The notes under the pieces were generated by a model. That model made no database searches. It was not told the origin of the DNA and saw only the letters and a program-made list of their open reading frames with translations. Position numbers and translations under genes: made by a program. From Verrucomicrobiia bacterium (GTDB lineage Bacteria; Verrucomicrobiota; Verrucomicrobiia; Palsa-1439), in assembly GCA_050010195.1 (NCBI GenBank), contig JBEKLM010000008.1:7843-71842 (forward strand): a stretch of 64,000 nt of DNA. Direction: 5' to 3'. The stretch's first letter is position 1; each line of letters opens with the position of its first letter. Of the stretch, positions 10,602 to 57,611 are shown one piece after another.

Positions 10602-12647
10602 TCACTTAGTTTTGTACGGTCCAAGAAATTTGTGGCCGTCGAAGTGCACGAGGTGGTCTGGCGTGTCCGCAATCCACACCTCTGTCTCCCAGGCGATGTC
10701 TGGTGCGAATTTCCTGAACGTCTCTCGGCTGAGAAATGCGGTTACGAAAATCAGTTCAGCCGTGCATTCTCGGCACAGACGTTCCAGTTCGACTAAACGG
10801 AGCGGAGAGATCGGGCCGGAGCTGTGAACCGCCTCTATTAAGAAGAGCCAGTTCTTCTCCTCTGAATAGGCAACAATGTCCGGTAGTTCTCCGTGTTCGA
10901 GTTTAAAGAACTTCAACGAGTCCAACTTTCTTTCGTTGCGGACTAGGTATCTGTTGGCGGCATCACCAACGTAAAGAACCTCGGCGCCAAATCCATACCG
11001 AGGGAGGAACACTTCGATTACTGCCTTTTGCAGAAGATTGTGCTCGCCCGGGCTGAAGTGAAGTGTCTTCCCGTCGGGTAGCTTTACCGGAACAAGCTCA
11101 AGGTTGCGCTCTGCCTTCAGGCGTTCGGCCAGCGTGGGCCTGCCGTCCATAAATTCCTCAATTTCCTCTAGCCAACCATCCTGGCCAAAAAACTTAATAA
11201 TCTCGATGAACTCCGGAGATAGCGAGTACCCGCGTGTTGGATCATTACGCGCAGCGGCTGGTTTATTTGCGCTTGCGATAACAATTCCGGCGACAACGAG
11301 CATTTTTAGGTCTTTACGACGAATATCATCGTAAGAGCCCTTCGAAATCTGTTCTTCGAAATGCTTATTCACATAATCAATGATATCGCGCGATTTCAGC
11401 GTATCTTTGCCCGTCCGCATACGAGCGTTGGGCCAGTCTGCGCTTCGCTTTACGTCGGCAACAGCTAGAAATGCCATCGCCATCCGTTCTAGTTCACGGG
11501 GCTTCAGACCCTCAAGGGGGATGCCCAATTTAGATAGCACGAGCAAGGCTTCATTGAATAATTTTGTCAGCCGTTGACTTTTTCCAGAGGAAGCGACGAA
11601 CTGAGGTGTTTTCATTTCTGAAGACTCCTTAAATTCCAGGGGCAGCGTGAATTGATCTGGCAGATTACGGTAAAGAATCTCAGCGGATTCGAGGCGGCGT
11701 TTTGAGGCTAGGTATGTGCGAATTGCACCCGCCAGATGCCACGCGAAAAGGGGCGGCACGGCGTTGCCCACTTGGTTGAACTGGCTGGTTTCCCCGCCCG
11801 CGAACTGAAATCCGTCAGGAAAGCTTTGCAGCCTAGCCGCCTCGTGGATAAGGATCCTCCGCCGTCGCCCGTCGGGCAGGCGAATTCGATGCATGTCCCC
11901 GGTTGCGCCGGCAAGGTTGCGGCAAGTCAATGTACGCGCGGGCTGATCGGGGTGAAGATCACGCGGGCGGACACAAAAAGAGGCGCGCTCATATTTAGCT
12001 ACGTATTCGTCCATGCTTGGCGTCAGAAACTTGGATTCAGGCGGCGCTTGGGACATAAGCCCGCCCAGGGCTTCGCCAGCCGTTACCTTCGCGGAGCATT
12101 CAATGGGGAATTGAAATTCACCTCGGTGGCCAACAACAATCACCCGCTCTCGGTTCTGCGGAACTCCGAAGTTTACGGCATTGAGGAGGCGCACCTCGAC
12201 AACATAATTGAGTGCGCGCAACGCGGCGATGACTTCATCGAAATACCACCGACTCCCGTAGAGCATCCCGCGAACATTCTCGAACATCCAGATGTCGGGC
12301 TGGACGCGCTTTATAGCGGAGATGAAGATAGGAAACCCGTCACGCGAATCCTTGAGCCCCAATTGGTAACCGCCCACGCTGAAAGGCTGGCACGGCGGTC
12401 CGCCGATTATGACCTTTGCTTGAGGATATATGGTGTCGACTGTGAGAGCGACTTGCTGGCAGTCGCCTTTGAGGTTTCGGTGATACGTATCGCAGGCGTC
12501 GCGATCTTGCTCATACCCCAGCGTCTTGAATCCCTGCGCCTCGAATCCAAGTGCAAGTCCGCCACAACCTGCGAATAGATCGAGAACCAAGGGTGAGCCG
12601 TTCTCCTTCGGCTTCAGCATTGTGTTGATCTTCTCTATGTAGGGCAT
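10602..12647 (-). CDS. DNA (cytosine-5) methyltransferase fused to a ~350-aa C-terminal restriction-endonuclease-like domain (BsuBI/PstI-type by recollection)
   Basis: m5C MTase motifs: I LVLDLFAGCGGLALGF, IV GGPPCQPFSVGG, VI ENVRGM, X FNQVGNAVPP. A further 350 aa follow, containing a PD…EEK element. GC is ~52%, against >60% in flanking genes. The start was chosen at the internal Met (MPYIEKI) to limit overlap with vsr. Confidence 0.75.
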   Translation of the reverse strand: MPYIEKINTMLKPKENGSPLVLDLFAGCGGLALGFEAQGFKTLGYEQDRDACDTYHRNLKGDCQQVALTVDTIYPQAKVIIGGPPCQPFSVGGYQLGLKDSRDGFPIFISAIKRVQPDIWMFENVRGMLYGSRWYFDEVIAALRALNYVVEVRLLNAVNFGVPQNRERVIVVGHRGEFQFPIECSAKVTAGEALGGLMSQAPPESKFLTPSMDEYVAKYERASFCVRPRDLHPDQPARTLTCRNLAGATGDMHRIRLPDGRRRRILIHEAARLQSFPDGFQFAGGETSQFNQVGNAVPPLFAWHLAGAIRTYLASKRRLESAEILYRNLPDQFTLPLEFKESSEMKTPQFVASSGKSQRLTKLFNEALLVLSKLGIPLEGLKPRELERMAMAFLAVADVKRSADWPNARMRTGKDTLKSRDIIDYVNKHFEEQISKGSYDDIRRKDLKMLVVAGIVIASANKPAAARNDPTRGYSLSPEFIEIIKFFGQDGWLEEIEEFMDGRPTLAERLKAERNLELVPVKLPDGKTLHFSPGEHNLLQKAVIEVFLPRYGFGAEVLYVGDAANRYLVRNERKLDSLKFFKLEHGELPDIVAYSEEKNWLFLIEAVHSSGPISPLRLVELERLCRECTAELIFVTAFLSRETFRKFAPDIAWETEVWIADTPDHLVHFDGHKFLGPYKTK

Positions 12648-13066
12648 CGCTTTGGCTTGCTGCCTTTGATGGCCTTCTTCAGGCGTGCAACAACCCGAGA
12701 CTCTCGTTTGAGTGAATGTTCCCATATACGAATGACGCTCCAGCCCTGTCTCCTCAATTTCCGGCTAACGGCACGATCGCGAGTTTGGTTCTTAACAATC
12801 TTATCCTCCCAATACAAGGCATTCTGTCTCGGTCGCTGGAGGTGCGATGAACAACCGTGCCAAAAGCAACCGTCCACGAATACCGCTAGACGGCGACTAG
12901 CGAAGATGAAATCTGGTCTGCCCGGCAGCGCTTGATTTCGTCGCCATCCGGTGATGCCGTTTGCCCGCATGATGGACATCAGTTTCAGCTCGGTGTGCTT
13001 GTTGCCGCTTGAACGAATGGCCGCCATTACATCGGAGCGCTTCCGCTTGGTAAATATGTCAGGCAT
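12635..13066 (-). CDS. vsr: Very-short-patch repair endonuclease Vsr
   Basis: FVDGCFWHGC motif and a ~140-aa Vsr-like sequence. The 3' end overlaps the m5C MTase gene. Confidence 0.9.
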   Translation of the reverse strand: MPDIFTKRKRSDVMAAIRSSGNKHTELKLMSIMRANGITGWRRNQALPGRPDFIFASRRLAVFVDGCFWHGCSSHLQRPRQNALYWEDKIVKNQTRDRAVSRKLRRQGWSVIRIWEHSLKRESRVVARLKKAIKGSKPKRCPT

Positions 13067-53105: not shown

Positions 53106-53984
53106 TCACATCACGGCGCGCGATTTCGCTGTGACCGATATCGTGTAGCGCTGGCTCTCGGTATGCAACTTCACGGCTGCGTTGAACGCGCGCCCCAGCA
53201 GTTCTGACGTGAGTACGTCTGCCTTCCGCCCTTGGGCCAGCACGCGGCCGGCTTTGAGGAGCAGCACATGCGAAAACACGGGCACAATTTCCTCGACGTG
53301 ATGCGTGACGAGCAGGAGCGTCGGCGCTCCCCGACGACGACCGAGGTCTTCGAGGAATCGCAGAAAATGGACGCGGGCGACAGGATCGAGTCCCGCGCAT
53401 GGTTCATCAAGAATCAGCAATGGCGGATTGGCCATCAGCGCACGGCCGATGAGCACCCGTTGGCGTTCGCCTTGTGAGAGCACTCGCCAGGGGCGGGCAG
53501 CGAGATGCGAACACTCAACGCTTTTCAGAATCTGGACAGCGCGCTTGCGATCGGCGGACGCAGGCTCTCCCCAGTAATCAATCATCGCATATTTGCCGCT
53601 CACGACCGTTTCCAACGCCGGCTCCTCCTCGGCCATCATTTGTCGGACAGATGAACTGACCAAGCCGACGCGTTTCCGCAGTTCGCGCCAGTCGGTCTCG
53701 CCGTAGCGTTCGCCCAGCACCTCGATCGTGCCGGCGGTTGGCGTAAGATAGGCCGTCAACGCACTGAGAAGAGACGTTTTCCCCGATCCATTCGCGCCGA
53801 GAATGGCCCAATGCTGGCCGTGCTCGACGCGCCACGACACATCGTCGAGAATGACCGTCTCCCCGCGCTCGACGCGCAAGTTACGGACGTTCAGGACGGC
53901 TGAGTTCCTCTGTGACTGCACGGTGCGGATCCTAGCATAGACGACGCCACAGTGCGCGTCTACGTGTCTTGTGCCGCCTAGCAC
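53106..53984 (-). CDS. Orphan ABC-transporter ATP-binding protein (the start may lie downstream of the first Met)
   Basis: Walker A GANGSGKTSLL, signature LSQGERQR and Walker B LLILDEP. No adjacent permease. Confidence 0.8.
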   Translation of the reverse strand: MLGGTRHVDAHCGVVYARIRTVQSQRNSAVLNVRNLRVERGETVILDDVSWRVEHGQHWAILGANGSGKTSLLSALTAYLTPTAGTIEVLGERYGETDWRELRKRVGLVSSSVRQMMAEEEPALETVVSGKYAMIDYWGEPASADRKRAVQILKSVECSHLAARPWRVLSQGERQRVLIGRALMANPPLLILDEPCAGLDPVARVHFLRFLEDLGRRRGAPTLLLVTHHVEEIVPVFSHVLLLKAGRVLAQGRKADVLTSELLGRAFNAAVKLHTESQRYTISVTAKSRAVM

Positions 53985-54027
53985 TCCGACCTTGTCGAAG
54001 GGTCTTTACCTGGTTACGCTGCGAGCT

Positions 54028-55320
54028 ATGGGACGGACATACCAAGTTACAATGTTTCACTTTCGATGTCCGCTTTGCGGTGCGAGACCTCCAGAAGAAC
54101 CTCTAGCCGACTATCTGGCCCGCTGGGCTACGTCCGATTCCCAGCGTTTGGGACGCTTCCTCAGTTTTCTAGTATGCGCTCTAAATGAGTTGCGCTGCGG
54201 TAGACCGGCTTGGTTCACTGAGCGTTTCGATGGGTCTTTGACCAGGGTGCACGATTCGGCAACGCCGTTGCTAGCAAGTTTCAACTCGATATGTCCGCAT
54301 TTACTTACGACTATCACGGAGGGGAGTTTCCGCATTGCCGAGCAGTGCCCCTTCTGCCACGCCCCCTCCGGCGAGCGGGAACCTGATCGCTACTTCGGCG
54401 CTTGGATGAGAGCGGACAAAGTGCAGACAGCCAACCTACTCTACGAAACGACGCTTGTTCTGTGGGCCATTCTGCGTGGTGCTCCCCAATGGTGCGATGG
54501 CAGCCTGCTGGACTCTCTAAACGGACTTCGCAAGTCTCTCCGTTGTGCGGCGCAGCAGTTGGGGATGATGGAATGCCCGCAATGTGGGCGATTCACGAAT
54601 TGCTTGTATGGCCCACTAGAGCCCAAGGAACAACGGTTCTGCCGGTGGTGTTTGGACATGGGCGGCGGCTTTGGCTTTGGCATATCCGTCGTCGTGGGTG
54701 ACGATCCGCGCGACGTCAAGATCGAGGCTCACGGCACAAATCCAAAGGCGCCCGCCGCAAATTCACGCGACCTCCTTCCACCGCGAGAGCCCCCGCCACC
54801 GTACACCGGGCCCAAATTCACCATCGAGATGCCGATCTTACCCGCTCGCGATGGAGTCGGGCTCGCCGAGTTTCTGAATGACAATCTGCCGGAAGTTTCA
54901 GCGGGGATTCGGCAAGGTTTCGCTCAGGTGTTTGACGGTTACGTTTCCACTCATCTTCTTAAGCGGTACAAAGACAGGTCTCAGGATTCATATTTTTGCG
55001 ACCGTCCGCGGCCTTCTTTTGACGCGACGATCTTCAAGGTCCTTTCGGGTGAGATTGAACCGCGTCACGCGCCTCCGCTCGCCATCACCTACGTTGCATT
55101 CGACCTTGTGTTTGCGAAATCAAATGTGTCGCACATCCCAGACGGTGATTTTCAAGGCGGCGAGCCTGCGCCCTTCATTGTGATCCAGCCCCCGTGGGAA
55201 ATTGTCTTACACTGGGCCGACAAAAAGGAGCAGGTAACTCAAGTTCGATTTCGCTTTCGGGCATTCATTCACCTGCGATTATCCACGGATCCCCAATGGA
55301 TGGGACGTGGACACACCTAA
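54028..55320 (+). CDS. Cys-rich hypothetical protein with several zinc-ribbon-like CxxC pairs (low-GC island)
   Basis: CPLCG, CPFCH, ECPQCG…CRWC. About 430 aa. GC is about 48-52%, against >60% in the flanks. Confidence 0.5.
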   Translation: MGRTYQVTMFHFRCPLCGARPPEEPLADYLARWATSDSQRLGRFLSFLVCALNELRCGRPAWFTERFDGSLTRVHDSATPLLASFNSICPHLLTTITEGSFRIAEQCPFCHAPSGEREPDRYFGAWMRADKVQTANLLYETTLVLWAILRGAPQWCDGSLLDSLNGLRKSLRCAAQQLGMMECPQCGRFTNCLYGPLEPKEQRFCRWCLDMGGGFGFGISVVVGDDPRDVKIEAHGTNPKAPAANSRDLLPPREPPPPYTGPKFTIEMPILPARDGVGLAEFLNDNLPEVSAGIRQGFAQVFDGYVSTHLLKRYKDRSQDSYFCDRPRPSFDATIFKVLSGEIEPRHAPPLAITYVAFDLVFAKSNVSHIPDGDFQGGEPAPFIVIQPPWEIVLHWADKKEQVTQVRFRFRAFIHLRLSTDPQWMGRGHT

Positions 55321-55393
55321 TCTCCCATCCACAGCGCCGTGCGCCTTAACACCGCAGCCTGCTGACCTTGACGGCTCTTCGCGTAGGATGGGG

Positions 55394-56068
55394 TCACGAC
55401 ATGGTCAGCGCCGGAACTGGCAGGGATGGTGCGTCCATAGAGCAATACTTGTTATGGAGAAACGCGAAAGCTGAAAACGAATTCGTCGCCAATTTGGCGG
55501 CCAGCCGAATATCCTGCTCCGTGACCGTGTAGATGATATCACGCGCTACGTTGCGGGGGCCATGAATCACCTTGTTTCTTTTCTTTTGGAGATTACGCCA
55601 TTCAGAGAAAACATCCGCGACCTCTGTTCCAGCGAGCGCGTCCTCAGGTTTGCATCCGCAAATCTTCTCGAACAACTTCAGGCGGTCACCCAATCGGGAA
55701 TTGCTTTCGAGCAGCAAATCGATGATTGGCCAGTCAAGACCCACGCGGCGGCACCGGTTAACCAGAAATGTGTGGAGGTGCAATTCCATCATCGTACAGA
55801 ACAGAATCACACAAACGCTGCGAGAACTCTCGGTCGAATAAGACTCAAAAATCATCTCTAGCAAGGTCCGCTCATCAAGCCCGAAGAATGTTTGCCTCAT
55901 ATCGCAAACGGTTCCGCAAATCCGGCATGGTATCTTTCTTCTGGTCTCCCCGTCGTTGTGGACGTGGCCGCATTCTGGGCACAGGGTGGCCGCGGTGGTA
56001 ATCGACGCGAGATTATGTGGTGTGTCGTGTGGGTCCCGCTCATCGAGAATTTCCAAGATCGTGCTCAT
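55394..56068 (-). CDS. Cys-rich hypothetical protein with an N-terminal zinc ribbon and a C-terminal HEPN-like Rx4HG motif (low-GC island)
   Basis: CPECGHV…CRICG. …WRNLQKKRNKVIHG…. Low GC. Confidence 0.5.
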   Translation of the reverse strand: MSTILEILDERDPHDTPHNLASITTAATLCPECGHVHNDGETRRKIPCRICGTVCDMRQTFFGLDERTLLEMIFESYSTESSRSVCVILFCTMMELHLHTFLVNRCRRVGLDWPIIDLLLESNSRLGDRLKLFEKICGCKPEDALAGTEVADVFSEWRNLQKKRNKVIHGPRNVARDIIYTVTEQDIRLAAKLATNSFSAFAFLHNKYCSMDAPSLPVPALTMS

Positions 56069-56339
56069 GGCCGATAAATTGGTAAAGGCTGGCTGAACGA
56101 GAGCCTAATCTGGCAATCGTGAGACCACAATCCCAAAGTGGCTGGAATCGGTCGGCAGTGGTCCAAATAAACTGGCGGGCACCCCGGCGATCCGCCCCCG
56201 CCGGCTCGTAGTTTACGGGTAAATGCGCGGCGCTGCTGGCTGCCGTCGCTTGCGTTTGCGGTACCGGCAAGTCTGTACCGCGTCTCACCTTCGGTTCGGC
56301 TTGCCAGCGGGTTTGCGGTTCGGCTATGTTGTCGGGGTT

Positions 56340-57611
56340 ATGGCAACGACGGTTTTAGTGGGCGCCCAGTGGGGCGATGAGGGCAAGGGCAAGGTCATCG
56401 ACGTGCTCACCGAGCAGGCGGACGTGGTGGTGCGCTACCAGGGCGGCAACAACGCGGGCCACACGGTTGAGGTCGGCGACCAGAAGTATGTATTGCACCT
56501 GATCCCGTCAGGGATATTGCATCCTGGCAAGATCAGCGTGATCGGCAACGGCGTCGTGGTCGATCCCGCGGCGTTGCTGGGTGAAATTGAGCACCTGCGC
56601 AGTCGCGGCGTGACCATCGACGGCAATCTCTACGTCAGCGAGACCGCCCACCTCGTGTTTCCGTACCACAAGATACTGGACGAGATTCGCGAGGAGCAAA
56701 AGGGCCAGCGCAAGATCGGGACCACCAAGCGCGGCATCGGCCCCGCCTACGCCGACAAGGTCGCGCGCACAGGCCTGCGACTGGTCGATTTGCTTTCGCC
56801 GGAACGTTTCTCCGAGAAACTGCGTCGAAAGATTCGGGAAAACAACGAGATCTTCAAGGCGTTCGGGGCGAAGCCGTTGAGTTTCGCGAAAATCAATGAC
56901 GAGTACCTGGAATGCGGACGCAAGCTACGGCCGTTTATTACGGACACCGTGACGCTGCTGAATCGTGCCGTGCGCGACGGACGAAATATTCTGTTCGAGG
57001 GCGCGCAGGGCACATTGCTCGATATCGATTTTGGGACCTATCCATTCGTGACCAGTTCGAACGCCACGGCCGGTGGGGCCTGCATCGGCACCGGTGTACC
57101 GCCACACCGTGTTGACCGGGTGGTCGGCGTCATGAAGGCCTACACGACACGCGTGGGCGAGGGACCATTCCCGACGGAACTGCTCGACGATCAGGGTTTG
57201 ATCCTGCGCGAGACAGGGCGCGAGTTCGGTGCGACCACGGGCCGGCCGCGTCGTTGTGGTTGGTTCGACGCCGTGGCGACGCGATACTCGGTCATGGTCA
57301 ATGGTATTGACGAACTGGCGGTGACGAAACTGGATGTGCTCGACAACCTGCCAAAGATCAAGGTGTGTGTTGCCTACAAGGTGGGCAGCCGGATTTACGA
57401 AACCGTCCCGAACGACATCAACGTGCTGGAGCGGTGCTCGCCTGTCTACCAGGAATTCGATGGCTGGCAAATGTCGACGAAACAGGCACGGGACTTCGAC
57501 CAATTGCCAAAGCGCGCTCGCGTTTATCTCCAAAAGCTCGCCCAACTCAGCGGCGCGAAACTCAGCCTTGTGTCCGTCGGCGCCCGGCGGGAGGAGACGA
57601 TATTCTTGTGA
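56340..57611 (+). CDS. purA: Adenylosuccinate synthetase
   Basis: VLVGAQWGDEGKGKVID P-loop and GGNNAGHT. Confidence 0.95.
   Translation: MATTVLVGAQWGDEGKGKVIDVLTEQADVVVRYQGGNNAGHTVEVGDQKYVLHLIPSGILHPGKISVIGNGVVVDPAALLGEIEHLRSRGVTIDGNLYVSETAHLVFPYHKILDEIREEQKGQRKIGTTKRGIGPAYADKVARTGLRLVDLLSPERFSEKLRRKIRENNEIFKAFGAKPLSFAKINDEYLECGRKLRPFITDTVTLLNRAVRDGRNILFEGAQGTLLDIDFGTYPFVTSSNATAGGACIGTGVPPHRVDRVVGVMKAYTTRVGEGPFPTELLDDQGLILRETGREFGATTGRPRRCGWFDAVATRYSVMVNGIDELAVTKLDVLDNLPKIKVCVAYKVGSRIYETVPNDINVLERCSPVYQEFDGWQMSTKQARDFDQLPKRARVYLQKLAQLSGAKLSLVSVGARREETIFL

Follow-up and report, generated by a model that had tools for sequence, protein, structure and literature searches.

HEPN domains are tightly associated with restriction-modification systems, and their Rx4-6H motif closes helix 3, ahead of the last helix, with a polar residue following the arginine (PMC3710099). 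Zinc-ribbon fusions have already been recorded for the Abi-like branch of the superfamily; PrrC and RloC, in turn, are fusions of an ABC ATPase to a HEPN domain encoded in restriction-modification operons, and many other HEPN proteins are non-toxic, e.g. nucleotidyltransferase fusions and MtlR (PMC3710099). HepS is a precedent for a HEPN defence protein that works solo (PMC13043305). Here we analyse a stretch of 64,000 nucleotides (henceforth the window) from a Verrucomicrobiia bacterium (assembly GCA_050010195.1, contig JBEKLM010000008.1, positions 7,843 to 71,842), and in it an islet between an ABC ATPase gene and purA with two convergent open reading frames (ORFs), A and B. An earlier reading made from the letters alone (the sequence-only reading) had taken the two for a compact, horizontally acquired pair with the typical shape of a defence or toxin module. 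Our analysis suggests instead that the islet holds two unrelated accessory genes, and that B, which happens to lie beside A, would encode a latent solo ribonuclease (RNase) of the Abi-like HEPN type; we give this interpretation, which draws on conservation, structure models and analogy, a probability of roughly 0.62. The features that carry the argument are the following.

53971..55320, plus strand: ORF A; the longest ORF, from the first GTG at 53971, has 449 amino acids, and that from the ATG at 54028 has 430
55321..55393, no strand: spacer of 73 bp, by direct reading of the sequence, separating the stop codons of the convergent A and B
55394..56068, minus strand: ORF B, 224 amino acids, with an N-terminal helix, a zinc ribbon and a HEPN domain; predicted RNase
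55916..55981, minus strand: zinc ribbon of B, C30-x2-C33 ... C48-x2-C51 (CPEC...CRIC), from the alignment
55445..55879, minus strand: HEPN helical domain of B, about residues 64-208
55562..55579, minus strand: predicted catalytic motif of B, R164-N-K-V-I-H169 (Rx4H), from conservation and the structure model

A single-sequence search with B retrieved 23 homologs and a profile search 73 clusters, made up of proteins of about 210-240 amino acids or fragments thereof, with no distant tail. This small family is confined, as far as organisms are named, to metagenome-assembled genomes (MAGs) of Verrucomicrobiota. Among 185,579 species-representative genomes it occurs in 7, as 7 contigs, all from such MAGs, and there are no copies in IMG/VR viral contigs, INPHARED phages or PLSDB plasmids. 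We scored conservation on an alignment of 21 sequences, in which both the N-terminus (MSTxxEILDE) and the ribbon region (CPECGHV...PCxxCG) are conserved. Three of the ribbon cysteines (C33, C48 and C51) are invariant and C30 is kept in 18 of the 21, being replaced by S or Y in the rest; matches of family members to zinc-ribbon models in Pfam were sub-threshold. Further along, the pattern KKR[N/D]xxxHG is nearly invariant, with R164 and H169 conserved in at least 90% of the sequences and the residue after R164 being N or D in all homologs. An invariant glutamate, E95, lies within helix 85-108 and is a candidate for the second acidic residue that HEPN domains keep in helix 2, often as Ex3[KR]; the residue four positions after it is K in some homologs and H in the window protein.

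A bare R-x4-H is weak evidence in a protein of 224 amino acids, and B has a second match, R-x6-H, at residue 11. R164-x4-H169 stands out from chance matches because it is conserved in the family and because of where it lies in the fold. The AlphaFold2 model of B, computed from the family alignment, has a predicted local distance difference test score (pLDDT) of 88.3 and a predicted template modelling score (pTM) of 0.87, and shows an all-alpha up-down helical bundle in which the motif ends helix 153-169 and is followed by a loop (170-183) and the last helix (184-208). The HEPN proteins named alongside this predicted fold are the HepT toxin SO_3166, LsoA/RnlA, AbiA, HepS and AbiV. On these points the sequence-only reading fared well: the ORF list bears out two convergent ORFs of 430 and 224 amino acids between the ABC ATPase and purA, the CxxC pairs noticed in both proteins (four in A, two in B) are conserved in homologs, and the HEPN-like motif suspected in the smaller one is kept across its family at the HEPN-typical position of the model. 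Both proteins can be regarded as putative zinc-ribbon proteins, since the paired CxxC knuckles are kept across homologs, and metal binding is predicted for both.

When the family was scanned member by member against Pfam, HEPN_RiboL-PSP touched 10 of the 21 sequences, Abi_C 4 and HepT-like 2. The best score against PF18735 (RiboL-PSP-HEPN) was that of P0007, 28.2 bits for a gathering threshold of 28.4, with the others at 17-24 bits; the window protein and its close relatives gave no match to this model at E <= 1. The family profiles of B and A found nothing below E = 0.1 among PDB sequences. We place B in the HEPN superfamily because of the conserved KKR[ND]xxxHG pattern and E95, the fold model and the sub-threshold HEPN matches, as a predicted member near the Abi-like branch that falls outside any named Pfam family. 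With that branch (PF18735 RiboL-PSP-HEPN; AbiD/AbiF; PF14355 Abi_C) B shares the all-alpha fold, an Rx4H with a polar residue at the end of helix 3, a candidate (E95) for the conserved acidic residue upstream and, at the level of the family, an association with restriction-modification operons. Unlike PF18735, it has neither an L-PSP domain nor a ParB operon, and no member of its family reaches the cut-off of that model; the module of N-terminal helix plus zinc ribbon and the restriction to Verrucomicrobiota are specific to the B family.

The other described systems are further away. There is no detectable sequence relationship between B and HepS, the single-protein HEPN abortive-infection system of the Gifsy-1 prophage (PDB 9oik), which is prophage-borne and has no zinc ribbon, whereas B has the ribbon and sits among chromosomal housekeeping genes. 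Compared with HepT/MntA (HEPN-MNT, type VII toxin-antitoxin), B carries the extra zinc ribbon and has no adjoining nucleotidyltransferase gene, either in the window or in the homolog loci; its motif, RNKVIHGP (H-G-L/H/Q in homologs), is without the tyrosine of the Rx4HxY that is AMPylated in HepT/MntA. What recalls PrrC and RloC is that, in the closest relatives, a predicted HEPN nuclease has an ABC-type ATPase as its neighbour and that its family is linked to restriction-modification, but here the genes are separate, the ATPase is of the transporter type and the linkage is confined to two relatives rather than family-wide.

These two relatives (loci fetched for comparison are cited by L numbers) are a Verrucomicrobiae MAG, L001/L010, with 83-93% nucleotide identity to the window across aligned blocks, and a second metagenome contig, L008. 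In both, the genes run DUF748, ABC ATPase, B, purA, uppS, cdsA, and ORF A is absent. The copies of B in L001 and L008 are 83-89% identical to that of the window at the nucleotide level, with a synonymous divergence (dS) of 0.35-0.46 and a ratio of nonsynonymous to synonymous divergence (dN/dS) of 0.11-0.19. Because dS of B is similar to or below that of the neighbouring DUF748, ABC and uppS genes, i.e. in step with them, B was inherited with its surroundings in this clade and did not arrive recently. B is thus a functional gene, vertically kept under purifying selection. The flanking genes and the segment that sets the window apart are these.

53106-53921/53984, minus strand: ABC ATPase, transporter type, adjoining a DUF748/AsmA-like gene
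53898..55405, no strand: segment without counterpart in L001 and L008 by blastn; 448 bp stand there in L001 and about 180 bp in L008
56223/56343-57611, plus strand: purA, followed by uppS and cdsA

Between purA and the ABC ATPase there is therefore a small variable site, with three states in three genomes. The insert is not flanked by notable direct or inverted repeats, and neither a tRNA nor an Rfam element was found near it. Other small genes come and go in the same block. In L008 a DUF2283 gene (L008:7756-7953), absent from the window, lies 47 bp upstream of B and co-directional with it, and a DUF3368/UPF0175 toxin-antitoxin pair with a 215-amino-acid ORF (L008:2692-3416), also absent from the window, sits between dxr and cdsA; small toxin-antitoxin-like cassettes therefore turn over within this conserved block. 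In L001 both purA (L001:6464-7737) and the ABC ATPase gene (L001:8690-9903) are split into several ORFs, yet align well, and these are probably assembly frameshift errors and not pseudogenes.

A and B were found together only in the window. A tblastn survey of 44 fetched loci (B in 32 and A in 12, with some places represented more than once) gave A at 0/32 of the B loci and B at 0/12 of the A loci, profile comparison showed the two families to be unrelated, and a shared transcript is ruled out because the genes are convergent. A and B are unrelated accessory genes, neighbours in this genome only. The compact, co-acquired pair of the sequence-only reading did not survive these results, given that the proposed co-occurrence across genomes is lacking, the relatives hold B without A and B diverged with its neighbours. 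Its horizontally acquired islet survives in part: the spot does vary between relatives and codon usage is atypical, while B was not recently acquired with A.

The B family is read as conflict-system RNases mainly because of the company kept by its distant homologs. Most of the metagenome contigs that carry homologs are short, and annotation of the neighbours is partial. In a distant clade (40-47% identity to the window protein) B almost always directly follows a co-directional gene, frequently with an ATGA overlap. At five loci (L002/L003, L028, L030, L032 and L036) this preceding gene encodes an N6_N4 DNA methyltransferase cut short after ~127 residues. In every one of the five the fragment breaks off at one and the same residue (...LYLHC, with variants), its stop overlaps the ATG of B (e.g. 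L032:1068-1496 and L032:1496-2134), and it is under purifying selection (dN/dS 0.13-0.22) with the DPPF motif kept. In L016 and L038, B is closely preceded by shorter pieces of this methyltransferase, and C-terminal remnants of it, together with a gene for an Mrr-like nuclease, are found downstream in L030, L015 and L038. Only in L029 and L040 is there a full-length methyltransferase beside B. Elsewhere the gene directly upstream encodes a type IIG restriction-methyltransferase (L011, L026 and L027) or an integrase of the tyrosine recombinase type (L039), and other loci have MazE/PIN, DUF433/DUF5615 or an XRE regulator nearby. Searching the neighbours with BLASTP and phmmer revealed no single conserved partner gene of B; there are several differing upstream genes instead. 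The defence or toxin context of the sequence-only reading thus holds for distant B homologs, in restriction-modification, toxin-antitoxin and mobile loci, and not for the copy in the window, nor in the form of a two-gene module.

By inference from the HEPN superfamily, B would act as a metal-independent endoribonuclease whose active site would comprise R164, N165 and H169, probably aided by E95 and probably across a dimer. The family most likely represents latent toxic RNases that may serve as second-line or abortive-infection effectors. In the clade of the window, B is a partnerless solo gene between purA and the ABC ATPase that is under purifying selection; its N-terminal helix and zinc ribbon presumably keep the protein inactive until it is triggered, as in HepS and other HEPN systems made of a single protein.

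Several observations weigh against this interpretation. The window copy lies among housekeeping genes (purA and the ABC ATPase, with A) and has no restriction-modification, toxin-antitoxin or mobile neighbour, the nearest restriction-modification islet of the window being 43 kb away, so that a defence role for it would be an extrapolation from homologs at 40-47% identity. None of the family members scanned scores up to the curated cut-off of a Pfam HEPN model, and the sole HEPN match of the window protein itself is to HepT-like, at E = 0.027. PADLOC had no match to A and gave for B only an insignificant one to Cas12f (E = 0.085), over the zinc ribbon; across Pfam, NCBIfam, PADLOC and PHROGs, the HEPN and zinc-ribbon matches of B all stayed below threshold. 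The need to restrain a solo RNase also counts against it. No hidden antitoxin came to light upstream of B, where the 154 bp to the longest purA ORF (274 bp to its likely start) contain only small ORFs expected by chance. That longest ORF, from 56223, begins 40 codons before the conserved MATTVLVGAQWGDEGKGK start, which places the likely start of purA at 56343 and therefore makes the intergenic stretch between B and purA about 274 bp rather than 154 bp.

Protein A has 28 homologs with 38-48% identity over the N-terminal 250 amino acids, mostly proteins of 250-270 amino acids, and an exhaustive profile search of 1.84 billion representatives gathered a family of 74 clusters. The start that fits the N-termini of homologs is the ATG at 54028 (430 amino acids). 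The protein divides into two parts.

54028..54792, plus strand: N-module of A, with four long helices, four CxxC pairs and an LLPP motif at its end
54067-54078, 54346-54357, 54574-54585 and 54640-54651, plus strand: the CxxC pairs of A, from the alignment of homologs
54793..55317, plus strand: C-terminal extension of A, residues 256-430 (175 residues), absent from most homologs and of low model confidence

All four pairs (C14/C17, C107/C110, C183/C186 and C205/C208) are invariant or at least 90% conserved, and further conserved motifs are a helix motif, YF..W...KVQTANLLYETGL.LWA, and the terminal LLPP/ILPPE. AlphaFold2 was confident for residues 10-250, modelled as four long helices plus beta-hairpin ribbons, and low beyond; we read the four pairs as two putative four-cysteine zinc sites. 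The best structural matches were four-helix bundles of the ferritin/Dps type, at 5-12% sequence identity. The Glu/His diiron ligands of ferritins are absent from A, in which E140 alone is invariant, and ferritins have neither the four CxxC pairs nor the beta-hairpin ribbons of A, so this match most likely reflects bundle geometry only. No match to A was found in Pfam, NCBIfam, PADLOC, PHROG or PDB sequences.

The C-terminal extension of A looks real, because codon usage is better in its own frame than in the other two, a frame free of stops was seen in only 17/20000 shuffles, and the extension aligns along its length with a relative of 666 amino acids, P0072. Other long members of the family carry at least four differing and unrelated C-terminal extensions, in which only TPR repeats could be recognised. 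P0072 itself extends past the region common to A (~residues 560-666), with further Cys-rich stretches and the C-terminus LELDIYIPGKKLGIEYHGIQH; by eye this C-terminus resembled the PD-(D/E)xK nuclease motif, and a PDB sequence search and Pfam (E <= 0.01) gave no match. We also considered whether A might be a spurious ORF. Homologs and conserved cysteines rule this out for the N-module, and codon usage, shuffles and P0072 do so for the extension; with both families conserved, neither ORF of the islet is spurious.

No homolog of A was found among 50,697 phage and 72,556 plasmid records; four IMG/VR contigs do carry one. Neighbourhoods vary by locus, some homologs lying beside ordinary metabolic genes and one (L019) in an islet rich in toxin-antitoxin genes. 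At L022:2247-10204, on an IMG/VR contig listed together with L021, L023 and L024, the A homolog and a co-directional ORF of 213 amino acids stand between a gene for a ParB-DNA methyltransferase (phrog_498, 1.4e-123) and those for a primase (phrog_3022) and a helicase (phrog_16), both on the strand opposite to the A homolog, an arrangement reminiscent of a moron-style insertion into a phage-like replication module. The genes directly upstream of the A homologs in L019 (5300-5986, 228 amino acids) and L022 (4233-4874, 213 amino acids) encode proteins that are weakly similar (phmmer E = 7e-07, in a small set) and have in common a C-terminal motif, (R)L(N/S)YMLYR(S/A)(H/E)Y, that is absent from the window. 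Possibly the A family has in this gene a facultative partner; a comparison of the neighbours by BLASTP and phmmer found no other conserved one. Our best guess, of low confidence, is that A serves mobile elements as a zinc-dependent adaptor or sensor module, with swappable C-terminal modules.

The base composition of the islet departs less from its surroundings than had been stated in the sequence-only reading, which gave 45-52% guanine plus cytosine (GC) against more than 60% in the flanks. We measured 55.1% for 53985-56100 (ORF A 56.2%, ORF B 52.4%) against 58-63% in the flanks and a mean of 59.1% for the whole window; the dip is real but shallower. The lowest 300-nucleotide windows of the islet (50.7-52.7% GC) all fall within B, and the islet as a whole belongs to the lowest 3.5% of equally sized windows, yet is not the minimum. 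Both A and B are atypical in codon usage, i.e. less housekeeping-like than the flanking genes. No promoter or terminator signals rose above shuffles around the islet, and no terminator-like site was found in the 73-bp spacer between A and B. The GC minimum of the window (~53%) coincides with a restriction-modification islet on the minus strand, at 10602-13066. It codes for a 707-amino-acid fusion of a C5-cytosine DNA methyltransferase (HaeIII/HhaI-like, residues 44-340) to an SdaI-like restriction endonuclease (residues 410-705, E = 1.7e-50), adjoined by a gene for a Vsr mismatch endonuclease of 143 amino acids, and is a more typical foreign islet of this kind than the A/B stretch.

Other explanations of the locus have to be weighed against an unrelated A beside a latent solo RNase. 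One is that B has been domesticated and has a cellular role (RNA processing, RNA binding or regulation), possibly as a non-catalytic protein in vivo. Its stable position by purA in three related genomes, a purifying selection like that of its neighbours and the lack of any partner or antitoxin gene would all fit, as would the many non-toxic HEPN proteins mentioned above (PMC3710099). But a domesticated protein sits poorly with the full catalytic signature retained here (R, the polar residue after it, H and the upstream E), with a family so rare and patchy (7/185,579 species representatives) that is otherwise tied to restriction-modification or mobile genes, and with the variation of the spot around B; we consider it possible and, on balance, unlikely.

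A more elaborate proposal, which we regard as doubtful, is the following. In it, the B family would be an undescribed abortive-infection effector coupled to restriction-modification, with the window copy orphaned: an ancestral B would have lodged in an N6/N4 DNA methyltransferase gene, at a single fixed position, and the retained N-terminal fragment of 127 amino acids might act as a sensor or antitoxin. Separately, the A family would be a modular conflict protein of phage-like elements, a zinc-binding adaptor with swappable C-terminal effectors, and its presence beside B would mark a hotspot of defence and counter-defence.

It is improbable that A is a leftover of a mobile element, counter-defence or regulatory, that landed by B as the intergenic spot tolerates insertions. 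The absence of A from the relatives at this exact site, its variable C-terminal modules and its homologs in phage-like replication modules and in the toxin-antitoxin-rich islet L019 speak for such an origin; the site, however, shows no integrase, flanking repeats or other mobile gene, the phage and plasmid records hold no homolog, other homologs stand beside ordinary metabolic genes, and no functional domain was recognised.

We see very little chance that A and B constitute one horizontally acquired two-gene defence or toxin-antitoxin module, with A as antitoxin, sensor or regulator of a HEPN toxin B. Such a module is suggested by the convergence of the genes only 73 bp apart, their somewhat low GC and atypical codon usage, the HEPN nature of B and the interchangeable C-terminal modules and mobile contexts of the A family. 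It is contradicted by the complete lack of co-occurrence, by the closest relatives that keep B at the same site without A, by a convergence that excludes a shared transcript, and by the divergence of B along with its neighbours, whereas the best A homolog is only 47% identical. Equally implausible is a split PrrC/RloC-like system, in which the neighbouring ABC-type NTPase would control B as a HEPN anticodon nuclease and A would interrupt the two: B and the ATPase gene are co-directional and 118 bp apart in L008 and adjacent in L001 too, PrrC and RloC are such fusions in restriction-modification operons (PMC3710099) and the ATPase matches PADLOC defence ATPases (e.g. mad3 at 4e-25), but it is a canonical transporter nucleotide-binding domain (best NCBIfam matches importer ATPases and ModF) that travels with the DUF748 gene, no ABC ATPase stands beside any B homolog outside this clade, and in the window an oppositely oriented gene lies between the two while B is still intact and under selection.

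With a latent solo HEPN RNase beside an unrelated A as the preferred interpretation, the locus has a corrective value, in that proximity and low GC did not signal a functional pair. A is a confidently predicted zinc-binding module without a recognised domain and new to annotation. The junction of a truncated methyltransferase with B, which lies outside the window and is the most interesting by-product of this work, suggests a partnership between a restriction-modification remnant and an RNase. B itself is a clean example of a solo HEPN gene kept among housekeeping genes, and as a predicted RNase family it adds to the HEPN superfamily a small, lineage-restricted branch with a zinc-ribbon front end, whose genomic context can help to catalogue the defence genes of Verrucomicrobiota, a poorly studied group.

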